Source of the DNA: Haemophilus sp. HMSC068C11
GTDB lineage: Bacteria; Pseudomonadota; Gammaproteobacteria; Enterobacterales; Pasteurellaceae
Direction: 5' to 3'
Assembly: GCA_905371285.1 (NCBI GenBank)
Contig: CAJPKS010000001.1
Coordinates: forward strand, 1 to 34,473
DNA: 34,473 bases
Shown: in pieces, positions 6,167-29,253 of the stretch
How positions within the stretch are numbered: position 1 is the first letter of the stretch
Layout of the letters: each line of letters opens with the position of its first letter
Notes under the pieces: generated by a model
Seen by the model: only the letters and a program-made list of their open reading frames with translations
Told to the model about the DNA's origin: nothing
Databases searched by the model: none
Position numbers and translations under genes: made by a program

Positions 6167-6922
6167 ATGAAGCAATCATTACGCCATCAGAAAATAATTG
6201 AGCTTGTAAAGCTAAAAGGATATGCCAGCACTGAAGAGCTGGTTATAGAACTGGAAGTCAGCCCTCAGACTATTCGACGCGATCTGAATATCCTTGCAGA
6301 ACAAGATTTAATTCGTCGTCATCATGGTGGTGCCGCTCCTTCTTCTACCGCAGAAAACTCTGATTACATTGAACGTAAACAATTTTTCCCTTCTCAAAAA
6401 AGCGCCATTGCTCGCGAAGTGGCAAAACGTATTCCAAACGGTGCATCCTTATTTATTGATATTGGTACCACGCCTGAAGCGGTAGCTAGCGCCCTGTTAA
6501 ATCATGAACGGTTACGCATTGTGACGAATAATATCAATGCGGCTCATTTATTACGACAAAATGAAACCTTTGATATTACGATGGCAGGTGGCTCCTTACG
6601 TAAGGATGGTGGAATCATTGGTGAGGCAACGGTTAATTTTATTTCGCAATTCCGGTTAGACTTTGGAATTCTGGGCATTAGTGCAATAGACCTTGATGGT
6701 TCATTGTTGGACTATGATTACCATGAAGTCCAAGTTAAACGAGCCATTATAGAAAGCTCGCGTCAAACGCTATTAGCGACCGACCATTCGAAATTCTCTC
6801 GACAAGCGATTGTGCGTTTAGGGGAGCTTAAAGATGTAGATTATCTTTTCACTGATGATGTGCCAAAACAAATTGCGGATTATTTAGAAAATAGCAATAC
6901 AAGGTTAGTGATTTGCAAATGA
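6167..6922 (+). CDS. glpR: DeoR-family regulator GlpR
   Basis: VSPQTIRRDL HTH, RHHGGA, FIDIGTT, DHSKF. Confidence 0.92.
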   Translation: MKQSLRHQKIIELVKLKGYASTEELVIELEVSPQTIRRDLNILAEQDLIRRHHGGAAPSSTAENSDYIERKQFFPSQKSAIAREVAKRIPNGASLFIDIGTTPEAVASALLNHERLRIVTNNINAAHLLRQNETFDITMAGGSLRKDGGIIGEATVNFISQFRLDFGILGISAIDLDGSLLDYDYHEVQVKRAIIESSRQTLLATDHSKFSRQAIVRLGELKDVDYLFTDDVPKQIADYLENSNTRLVICK

Positions 6923-6924
6923 TA

Positions 6925-7214
6925 GAAATAGGAAGTGCGGCCAAAATTGACCGCACTTTTTTGGTAAGCATCCATGCCTAGCCACTGCTGTTTCGACCAA
7001 TTCAAAATTAACTTCATTCACCCAACCTCCTTATTGATGTGAGATGAAACTAATTTTGCTGCAATAGTTGTTAAATTTTAGGGATACAAATGGAGGGCAA
7101 ATCATTCGACTGCCAATTCTTTATTTAGGACAACGGGGAAGGTTTGCTTGAAGAGTCAAGAAAGACTAGAGCTTGATAGATCAAGTGGGTACATCGAGAT
7201 CCCTCTCTAAATGT
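6925..7214 (-). ncRNA. Putative CRP-activated structured sRNA with three loop-displayed GGA (CsrA-type) motifs
   Basis: Own promoter and CRP site; hairpins at 7191-7214, 7003-7058 and 6962-6984; G-U pairs form only on the minus strand; no long ORF. Confidence 0.55.
6933..6962. terminator. glpR terminator formed by an inverted USS pair
   Basis: AAGTGCGGCCAA-aa-TTGACCGCACTT followed by T-tract. Confidence 0.85.
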
Positions 7215-7220
7215 AATTTA

Positions 7221-7285
7221 TTTATACTGCTGTTTTGGTAAAAAGGGAATCTTAAAATTATAAATATGTGATCGAGATCACAAAT
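7221..7285 (-). promoter_or_regulatory. CRP site (7264-7285) and -10 TATAAA (7226-7221) facing the intergenic region
   Basis: ATATGTGA-tcgaga-TCACAAAT is near consensus; centre about -61 from inferred +1 at 7214 or 7213. Confidence 0.75.
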
Positions 7286-7292
7286 TAAATGC

Positions 7293-7333
7293 AAAAAGAA
7301 AGCTGCTTATTTTTGTTTAAAAAATAAGCAGCT
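7293..7333 (-). terminator. trmL terminator
   Basis: AGCTGCTTATTTTT-N5-AAAAATAAGCAGCT with a minus-strand U-rich tail. Confidence 0.8.
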
Positions 7334-7345
7334 ATTTTATTGGTT

Positions 7346-7831
<486 letters not shown>

Positions 7832-9986: not shown

Positions 9987-10643
9987 GTGATTCGATTTTC
10001 AAATGTCTCTAAAGCTTATCACGGTGCGACTCAGCCGGCCTTGCAGGGTTTGAATTTTCATCTTCCTGTCGGAAGTATGACTTATCTTGTTGGGCATTCT
10101 GGCGCGGGTAAAAGTACCTTGCTTAAATTAATCATGGGAATGGAAAAGGCGAATGCTGGAAATATTTGGTTTAATGGTCATGATATTACGCGTTTGTCTA
10201 AATATGAAATCCCATTTTTACGTCGTCAAATCGGTATGGTTCACCAAGATTATCGTTTATTAACGGATCGTAGCGTGGTAGAAAATGTGGCGCTGCCATT
10301 GATTATTGCTGGCATGAACCCGAAAGAAGCACATACACGTGCATTGGTTGCATTAGATCGTGTGGGCTTACGTAGTAAAGCGAATTATATGCCGCCACAA
10401 ATCTCAGGTGGGGAACAACAACGTGTAGATATCGCACGCGCAATCGTACATAAACCGCAACTTTTATTAGCGGATGAGCCGACAGGCAATCTTGATGATG
10501 AACTTTCCTTAGGGATTTTTAATCTTTTTGAAGAGTTTAATCGTTTAGGGGTGACAGTCTTGATTGCGACACACGATATCAATTTAATTCAAAAAAAACC
10601 AAAACCATGTCTTGTACTTGAACAAGGCTATTTACGCTATTAA
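9987..10643 (+). CDS. ftsE: Cell division ATP-binding protein FtsE
   Basis: Walker A GHSGAGKST, ISGGEQQRV, DEPTGNLD; ftsYEX order; GTG start. Confidence 0.96.
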   Translation: MIRFSNVSKAYHGATQPALQGLNFHLPVGSMTYLVGHSGAGKSTLLKLIMGMEKANAGNIWFNGHDITRLSKYEIPFLRRQIGMVHQDYRLLTDRSVVENVALPLIIAGMNPKEAHTRALVALDRVGLRSKANYMPPQISGGEQQRVDIARAIVHKPQLLLADEPTGNLDDELSLGIFNLFEEFNRLGVTVLIATHDINLIQKKPKPCLVLEQGYLRY

Positions 10644-10652
10644 GGATAAAAA

Positions 10653-11585
10653 ATGACAAGACGTATTGATGCTTCTTTTGGCGTGCAAACTGCCTATACT
10701 TTGCGTTCTGTTTGGGGCGATTTGGTAAAACGTAAATTTGGTACATTGCTAACGATTTTAGTCATTGCCGTGTCTTTAACGATTCCAACGGTGAGCTATT
10801 TGTTATGGAAAAATTTACATTTAGCAACGACTCAATTTTATCCGGAAAGCGAACTCACAATCTATTTACATAAAAATTTAAGTGAAGAAGATGCTAACTT
10901 GGTGGTGGAAAAAATCCGTCAGCAAGAAGGTGTGGAATCGTTAAATTATGTTTCTCGTCAAGACAGTTTGAAAGAATTTAAAAGTTGGTCTGGTTTTGGT
11001 GAAGAGTTAGAAATTTTAGATGACAACCCATTGCCGGCTGTGGTGATGGTGAAACCCTCTAAAGCGTTTAATGAATCAGAAAAACGAGCTGAGTTACGCG
11101 CAAATTTAAATAAAATTAAAGGTGTGCAGGAAGTTCGACTAGATAACGATTGGATGGAAAAATTGACTGCACTTTCATGGTTGTTTGCGCACGTAGCAAT
11201 TTTCTGCACGGTGTTAATGACAATAGCTGTATTCCTCGTTATCGGAAATAGCATTCGTTCTGATGTTTATAGTAGCCGTGCAAGTATTGATGTGATGAAG
11301 CTATTAGGTGCAACGGATCAATTTATTCTTCGCCCTTATCTTTACACTGGTATGATTTATGCAGTGTTAGGTGGATTTGTCGCAGCCGTATTTAGTAGTC
11401 TTATTGTGGGTTACTTTACTTCAGCCGTGAAGTATGTGACGGATATCTTTGCGGTCACCTTTGAGCTCAATGGATTAGGTGTAGGCGAGCTGATCTTCTT
11501 ATTAGTAAGTTGCTTGATTATGGGTTATGTTGGTGCATGGATTGCAGCAACAAGACATATTGCAATGTTAGATAACAAACTATAG
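10653..11585 (+). CDS. ftsX: Cell division permease FtsX
   Basis: NPLPAV, IGNSIR, MKLLGAT; 4 TM segments. Confidence 0.96.
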   Translation: MTRRIDASFGVQTAYTLRSVWGDLVKRKFGTLLTILVIAVSLTIPTVSYLLWKNLHLATTQFYPESELTIYLHKNLSEEDANLVVEKIRQQEGVESLNYVSRQDSLKEFKSWSGFGEELEILDDNPLPAVVMVKPSKAFNESEKRAELRANLNKIKGVQEVRLDNDWMEKLTALSWLFAHVAIFCTVLMTIAVFLVIGNSIRSDVYSSRASIDVMKLLGATDQFILRPYLYTGMIYAVLGGFVAAVFSSLIVGYFTSAVKYVTDIFAVTFELNGLGVGELIFLLVSCLIMGYVGAWIAATRHIAMLDNKL

Positions 11586-22689: not shown

Positions 22690-22810
22690 TGTCCTTGGTA
22701 TTCTGTTTGAGTATCCTGAAAACGGGCTTTTCAAGATCAGAATACCAAATTAGTTAAAATAATAGGAGTGCATAGTGGCCCGTATTGCAGGCATTAACAT
22801 TCCTGATCAC
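22690..22810 (+). promoter_or_regulatory. Alpha operon leader, S4-binding pseudoknot
   Basis: GAGTATCCTGAAAACGGGCTTTTCA core, complementary GCCCGT in early rpsM, GTG start. Confidence 0.8.
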
Positions 22811-29207: not shown

Positions 29208-29253
29208 AAGTGTGATTTATCTCACAATAATCAAATTAAATACTCGCTATGCT
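29208..29253 (+). promoter_or_regulatory. CRP site (29208-29229) plus -10 TATGCT (29248-29253): class II promoter of pnuC
   Basis: TGTGA-tttatc-TCACA centred -41.5 from inferred +1 near 29260. Confidence 0.7.

Follow-up and report, generated by a model that had tools for sequence, protein, structure and literature searches.

An apparent CRP-driven small RNA with CsrA-type loops, convergent with glpR, in Haemophilus parainfluenzae and rodent relatives

The stretch of DNA that we analysed (the window, 34,473 nucleotides from Haemophilus sp. HMSC068C11) contains a gap of 423 bases between glpR and trmL with a terminator stem at each end. Both of the bounding stems reported in a first-pass annotation of this DNA were recovered. 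The features of the locus, in window coordinates, are as follows.

6167–6922, plus strand: glpR, a DeoR-family repressor; convergent neighbour in 14 of 14 intact homologue types
6930–7214, minus strand: predicted small RNA of ∼285 nt (∼190–230 nt in homologues), ends deduced
6933–6958, no strand assigned: terminator stem common to the RNA and the convergent glpR, made of two inverted sequences that we take to be of the uptake-signal type
6965–6980, minus strand: terminal hairpin with CsrA-type site 3, GCAUGGAUGC; ACAUGGAUGU in several homologues
6982–7003, minus strand: conserved 3' block (UUGGUC block), GAAUUGGUC..AAC.GCA..UGG in alignment A9
7003–7058, minus strand: hairpin of 24 bp whose loop, AAGGAG or in a second clade AAGGAU, holds site 2; confined to H. 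parainfluenzae-type copies
7135–7142, minus strand: C-rich tract CCUUCCCC, a candidate anti-Shine-Dalgarno seed that can pair back onto site 1
7147–7185, minus strand: P2 domain, four CUUGA/UCAAG arms forming nested or tandem helices, preserved via G-U wobbles
7191–7214, minus strand: P1 hairpin with CsrA-type site 1, loop AGGGAU, GGA at 7202–7200
7221–7226, minus strand: -10 hexamer TATAAA (GATAAT, TATAAT or TATAAC in homologues)
7264–7285, no strand assigned: CRP site (CRP-N type), core TGTGA-N6-TCACA at 7282–7267
7301–7333, no strand assigned: bidirectional terminator after trmL, upstream of the CRP site
7346–7822, minus strand: trmL, a SpoU methylase; upstream neighbour in the H. parainfluenzae group only

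The TrmL protein of the window is 97–100% identical to proteins of Haemophilus parainfluenzae and uncultured Haemophilus. Elsewhere the upstream neighbour is mazG (genome G136) or, in a Rodentibacter-like genus (g44), a dusA-type gene, and all g44 copies of the RNA lie between a Dus-family gene and the convergent glpR. In the window the U tail of the shared terminator stem is weak on the RNA side (CCTATTTCT) and stronger on the glpR side; the g44 homologues have U tails on both sides. At 22692–22807 on the plus strand the window also holds an Alpha operon ribosome binding site (RF00140, 107 bits), its sole Rfam match.

The site at 7264–7285, which had been called near consensus, has a perfect core (10 of 10 positions) and agrees at 18 of 22 positions with the CRP consensus used for scoring, tying for second place among the 21 perfect-core sites in the window's genome. 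Its core is invariant in all nine rows of alignment A5, and in 14 of 15 homologue types a perfect core lies 39–40 nt ahead of the -10 hexamer (40 nt from TCACA to the hexamer in the window), which is class I spacing given a 17-bp promoter. The centre of the site falls at -60.5 relative to 7214 and not at -61.5 as was first proposed, but the conservation of site and spacing among homologues argues for the class I-type CRP promoter proposed with it, and from the rules for CRP in E. coli we infer activation by cAMP-CRP. A scan for consensus promoters returned none, the TATAAA promoter being too weak for the scan, and in genome G220 the CRP site is degenerate. A natural promoter mutant occurs in genome G119 (L042, aligned at ∼7300–7250), where a deletion of ∼55 bases takes the CRP site and spares the -10 hexamer and the RNA. 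Two further perfect-core CRP sites, both intergenic, are found in the window at 1636–1657 and 29208–29229, the former equalling 7264–7285 at 18 of 22.

Read on the minus strand, the RNA from 7214 to 6926 contains exactly three GGA triplets, each as ANGGA inside the loop of a local hairpin, as the first-pass annotation had described. Three ANGGA hairpins arose in none of 2000 dinucleotide shuffles and two arose in six of them, and among the 1112 intergenic strands (556 regions) of the window's genome this is the only one with three, six others having two. The GGA triplet itself is not enriched (three in the RNA against a median of four in the shuffles), and its number per RNA ranges from one to four among homologues. 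The many G-U pairs in its stems point to the minus strand, as the first-pass annotation argued. Neither the window RNA nor six homologue loci matched an Rfam model at the gathering score or near it; for the known Pasteurellaceae sRNAs HrrF, GcvB and Arrc/Rna the sole related row was Arrc11, whose 21 bits fell short of the cut-off of 52 and came from a stretch containing the common terminator. Judged by its sequence features, this would be a real RNA family, new and without an Rfam entry.

BLAST-type searches covered 234 genomes of the family, and the matches outside the window's own genus were to the common terminator or to CRP sites. Full-length copies with 89–100% identity are present in 49 of the 54 other genomes of the genus, and a core pattern adds the copy in G136, giving 50 of 54, with no match in 179 genomes of other genera; the diverged G136 copy was recognised by reading the DNA after glpR. 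The four same-genus genomes that were missed are fragmented or incomplete, and in G144 the contig stops at trmL. In the most distant clade of the genus the RNA region is 89% identical, compared with 74% at the third codon positions of glpR.

A covariance model of the 5' domain (R1) matched 12 of 80 and 3 of 46 genomes at E<=0.05, and only the matches in G136, G223, G213, G219, G218 and G096 were retained; eight other loci were read and rejected, lying mostly within genes and having no CRP box or layout, the three further ones (L180, L184 and L187) being weak. The refined model (R2) found the RNA in 10 of 14 g44 genomes, in one of 20 g22 genomes, the other 19 being without it in this search, and in none of six others; a second match in G219 was dropped, and 40 further genomes gave no match in a run made without a positive control. 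At the distance of the Rodentibacter-like genus the third codon positions of glpR are just 44% identical. Five named genomes were searched, of which Rodentibacter pneumotropicus was positive, and the RNA was not found in H. influenzae, H. haemolyticus, Aggregatibacter segnis or H. massiliensis, each represented by one genome. Hence the RNA, being missing from most of the family, including the one named H. influenzae genome, is not a general answer for the Pasteurellaceae. A model of the 3' block (R3) matched 9 of 40 and 11 of 40 genomes, and 15 of its 21 loci besides G223 were read and discarded, none having the CRP box, layout or 5' domain; R3 is insensitive, since it missed the true G136 copy. 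A loose 3' pattern proved useless, matching 222 of 234 genomes, the same as the control level. A pattern scan of metagenomes gave 100 stretches, of which 80 were tested and 42 were H. parainfluenzae-type, with no new lineage, and a search of phages with the RNA gave no match. The g44 genome G212 (L055) has csrA and no copy of the RNA, and there glpR is followed by a convergent gene, presumably glycerol-kinase-like.

Covariation was to be sought in Pasteurellaceae homologues, and compensatory pairs are present in P1, in the long stem and in the 3' hairpin. Because the sequences are related the counts overstate the number of independent events. Four of nine P1 pairs have changed on both sides across genera, as have three of the six pairs of the terminal hairpin (covariation above 500 of 500 shuffles). 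Within H. parainfluenzae-type copies three of the 24 pairs of the middle stem are compensatory; this stem has seven one-sided changes and 99.8% of its cells paired over 27 variants. The arms of P2 have 98–99% of cells paired under either register, nested or tandem. The expectation that the GGA loops would be conserved stands for the 5' and 3' loops, which are kept across two genera, and fails for the middle one, whose hairpin is absent from the Rodentibacter-like homologues and is specific to its lineage. Site 1 keeps its ANGGA, at position 11, in 12 homologue types out of 14 and has lost it in G136, where an AAGGAU adjoins the terminal hairpin instead, and in G218. The ANGGA of the terminal hairpin is present in all 14, albeit on a weak stem in G211 and G220 and as AUGGAAG in G216. 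The scores of the 3' block beat all 300 shuffles against each of G223, G136 and G221, and the C-rich tract is found in every homologue type examined, with a variable sequence (CCUUCCCC, UCUCUCCU).

Within 90 strongly related copies the loops differ at the N of ANGGA or by having AAGGAU in place of AAGGAG. Site 1 is AGGGA in 88 copies, AUGGA in one and AGGA in one; site 2 is AGGAGG in 63, AGGAUG in 25 and AGGAUA in one, with one not scored; and the N of site 3 is U in 79, C in eight and G in three. In four genomes site 3 reads ACAUGGAUGU, which is close to the CsrA SELEX consensus. It is likewise close to the AUGGA of apical loops, AUGGA/ANGGA in such loops being given as the in vivo CsrA motif in PMC5207318.

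The RNA as a whole folds with a z of -1.47 (19 of 200 shuffles as good; -0.58 for the plus strand), and the diverged G136 copy with a z of -2.95. In full-length ensembles of the window RNA site 2 is fully open, with site 1 open at a probability of 0.43 and site 3 at 0.57; over 14 homologues the values for sites 1 and 3 span 0.00–0.67 (0.02–0.66 for site 3), and site 1 is predicted to be mostly paired in six g44 genomes, a set lying beyond, or overlapping, the G136 and G218 copies that have lost it. The isolated 5' 95 nt adopts two predicted folds, in which site 1 is either open or paired with the downstream pyrimidine-rich sequence. These lie within 0–3.3 kcal/mol of one another in H. parainfluenzae, G136 and G223-type copies, and the closed fold is favoured by 2.4–7.6 kcal/mol in the other g44 clade. 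When site 1 was forced open, the accessibility of the C-rich tract rose by 0.3–0.5 in eight of 14 full-length homologues and barely changed in six, the window's own RNA included. Given that site 1 and the tract can pair, binding of CsrA may unmask the tract, a computed and speculative link.

Expression was viewed through contigs from four of 23 listed sequencing runs. Two RNA-library contigs span 6932–7109 (depth 54.5) and 6942–7358 (depth 3.4), and their ends at 6932 and 6942, which fall in or at the terminator stem, are a weak hint of a transcript. The contig to 7358 (X9) crosses the predicted start and the CRP site, one from X8, a library only guessed to be RNA, covers 6880–7301 and so reaches into glpR, and X10 covers most of the stretch, as DNA would. 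That glpR and trmL are uncovered in X23, X9 and X8 is uninformative as to their expression.

The proposal requires a CsrA protein, and csrA, outside the window but expected in the genome, is intact in the window's genome (G000) and present in five of five others, as are crp and hfq in the five examined. The CsrB model (RF00018) matched none of five genomes, with a positive E. coli control, and UvrY was not found above the cut-off in five near-complete genomes or among the five receiver-domain proteins of G000 (87% complete), whose best matches are CpxR, ArcA, NarP, QseB and ArcB. With csrA kept while CsrB and UvrY were not found, the RNA is a concrete candidate CsrA antagonist. As context, counted without a control, 33 of 1438 crude gene starts in G000 carry two ANGGA motifs with one over the ribosome site. 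Among these are the leaders of a glgC-like and an hfq-like gene (contigs C13 and C2), which we take to encode GlgC and Hfq. Both glgC and hfq are known CsrA targets in E. coli, with ANGGA over or near the ribosome site, as here.

Like McaS of E. coli, which is activated by CRP, the Haemophilus RNA has few GGA and a CRP site at an activating position. In McaS two exposed GGA of a small number bind CsrA and there are base-pairing regions as well, according to PMC4098024 and PMC10729762. The Haemophilus RNA differs in giving no sequence or model match to McaS, in its length of 190–285 nt with sites at the two ends, in belonging to another bacterial family and in having no CsrB found alongside. 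It also differs from HrrF, a Pasteurellaceae sRNA that is Fur-regulated. CyaR has a C-rich anti-Shine-Dalgarno element. It is likewise a CRP-activated sRNA, as described in PMC4098024, but there is no model match and the Haemophilus RNA is much longer, with conserved CsrA-type loops. With CsrB/CsrC and RsmY/RsmZ it shares ANGGA in conserved hairpin loops (of partial openness in full-length folds), a stand-alone intergenic position and an intrinsic terminator, whereas it matches none of their Rfam models, is not enriched in GGA, and carries a CRP box where CsrB and CsrC are under BarA/UvrY (GacS/GacA) control, no UvrY having been found; it has one to three sites compared with the 22 of CsrB given in PMC10729762. 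Searchable full-text literature held no account of this RNA or of any Pasteurellaceae CsrA antagonist RNA, although supplementary RNA-seq lists of sRNAs could hold an unnamed entry.

We consider it fairly probable that the locus encodes a stand-alone non-coding dual sRNA of a new family, McaS-like in being activated by CRP and in binding CsrA. During a shortage of preferred sugar, cAMP-CRP would bind the class I-spaced site and activate the weak sigma-70 promoter, and the RNA would then display one ANGGA loop at the 5' end and one immediately ahead of the terminator, with a third in H. parainfluenzae. Binding of CsrA dimers to these loops would reduce the free pool of the protein and release its targets, for instance the glgC- and hfq-like mRNAs with their CsrA-type motifs; from the loops we infer both the binding of CsrA and its titration in vivo. 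A second role, in Hfq-type base pairing as for McaS, is probable for the C-rich tract and the 3' UUGGUC block, and CsrA on site 1 may expose the tract. The twin CUUGA helix, the C-rich tract and the 3' block, which are conserved equally with the loops, point to such a role.

The three-site Csr sponge that was first proposed has to be revised, as only the 5' and 3' sites are ancestral and the most conserved parts include blocks without GGA. Because a pure sponge does not need those blocks, it is an unlikely description, and the lack of GGA enrichment, the presence of only one to three sites and the loss of the 5' site in two of 14 types show that this is not a multi-site sponge of the CsrB class. 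By analogy, with one to three sites titration may be slight: PMC10729762 gives ∼1.2-fold for SgrS/FnrS-type sponges against ∼9-fold for CsrB. A bolder version, in which the H. parainfluenzae and Rodentibacter lineages rely on the RNA as their main CsrA antagonist, direct cAMP-CRP control replaces BarA/UvrY-CsrB, and the 5' domain is a two-state switch (CsrA on site 1 freeing the C-rich seed) that both senses and titrates CsrA, we regard as rather doubtful.

The conserved non-GGA blocks, the small number of sites and the presence of hfq would suit a CyaR-like, CRP-activated base-pairing sRNA that represses mRNAs by its C-rich tract or 3' block and that CsrA merely stabilises or remodels, without titration, and among the further CsrA-bound Salmonella sRNAs in PMC5207318, 14 of 16 have one to six GGA and are not known sponges. 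We think this unlikely, since a search for mRNA targets among the 1438 crude gene starts by duplex energy and longest complement failed to outperform shuffled seeds or chance, the sequence of the tract varies, unlike most seeds, and H. parainfluenzae has gained and conserved an extra exposed ANGGA loop. A peptide-encoding mRNA, type I toxin-like or dual-function, in which site 1 acts as the Shine-Dalgarno sequence and is kept repressed by both CsrA and the C-rich tract, is very improbable. A start codon does come after site 1, opening a frame of 12 codons in the window and of 20–33 mostly hydrophobic codons, in the same register, in six g44 genomes, but among the 89 H. parainfluenzae-type copies that were scored the frame stops after four codons in 26, indels shift it in g44, and a start with a Shine-Dalgarno sequence after site 1 is absent in six types (G223, G213, G217, G219, G136 and G096), so that a conserved small peptide was rejected; the frames after site 2 run through the terminator. 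We give scarcely any credence to there being no RNA at all, with the conserved parts serving as DNA sites (the CRP box and CTTGA-N4-TCAAG operators) between two terminators. The modest whole-RNA z would allow it, as would the weakness of the hint of a transcript in the RNA libraries, but the strand-specific wobbles and compensatory pairs, and a constant spacing from CRP site to -10 hexamer aimed into the element with no gene start downstream on the minus strand, argue for an RNA.

A cis-acting role, as the leader of a CRP-activated gene since lost, such as a trimeric autotransporter, or as a convergent transcript that damps glpR, seems distinctly improbable. It is supported by L176 1405–1710 in G096, where a plsB-type gene and rsmG flank a fusion of the promoter and 5' domain to a YadA-anchor remnant of 38 codons. 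The G096 promoter, moreover, resembles that of the intact autotransporter at the same site in G083 (51 against 21.8 ± 3.8, 0 of 300 shuffles, the shared CRP consensus included). This junction may be a recombinant remnant or an ancestral leader; a microhomology origin for it failed the shuffle test, as did derivation of the 3' half from an autotransporter end. The 5' domain is in none of five intact autotransporter loci, however, the 3' half is unlike an autotransporter end, and a leader that had lost its function would not have retained, from one genus to another, the 3' block and a 3' hairpin that covaries. For damping of glpR there is the RNA's orientation towards it in every intact type together with the weak terminator tail of the window, although the U tails on both sides in g44 homologues limit overlap with glpR.

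To return to the dual sRNA that we favour, Haemophilus parainfluenzae, which lives in the mouth, and its relatives from rodents seem to possess a small RNA not described before, driven by the sugar-starvation regulator CRP and shaped to bind the translation regulator CsrA. If this is true, the RNA would wire CsrA directly to cAMP. In Haemophilus, cAMP is also the signal behind competence and sugar use. PMC3950518 states that H. ducreyi without functional csrA shows partial attenuation in people.

The leaders of intact trimeric autotransporter genes at L302 10880–11095 (G083) and L303 ∼10010–10230 (G079) combine a CRP site close to consensus with an AAGGAU that overlies the ribosome site, from which joint control by CRP and CsrA is possible. 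In G094 (L306, ∼10950–11050), AAAAGT hexamer repeats precede an autotransporter gene, which suggests phase variation.
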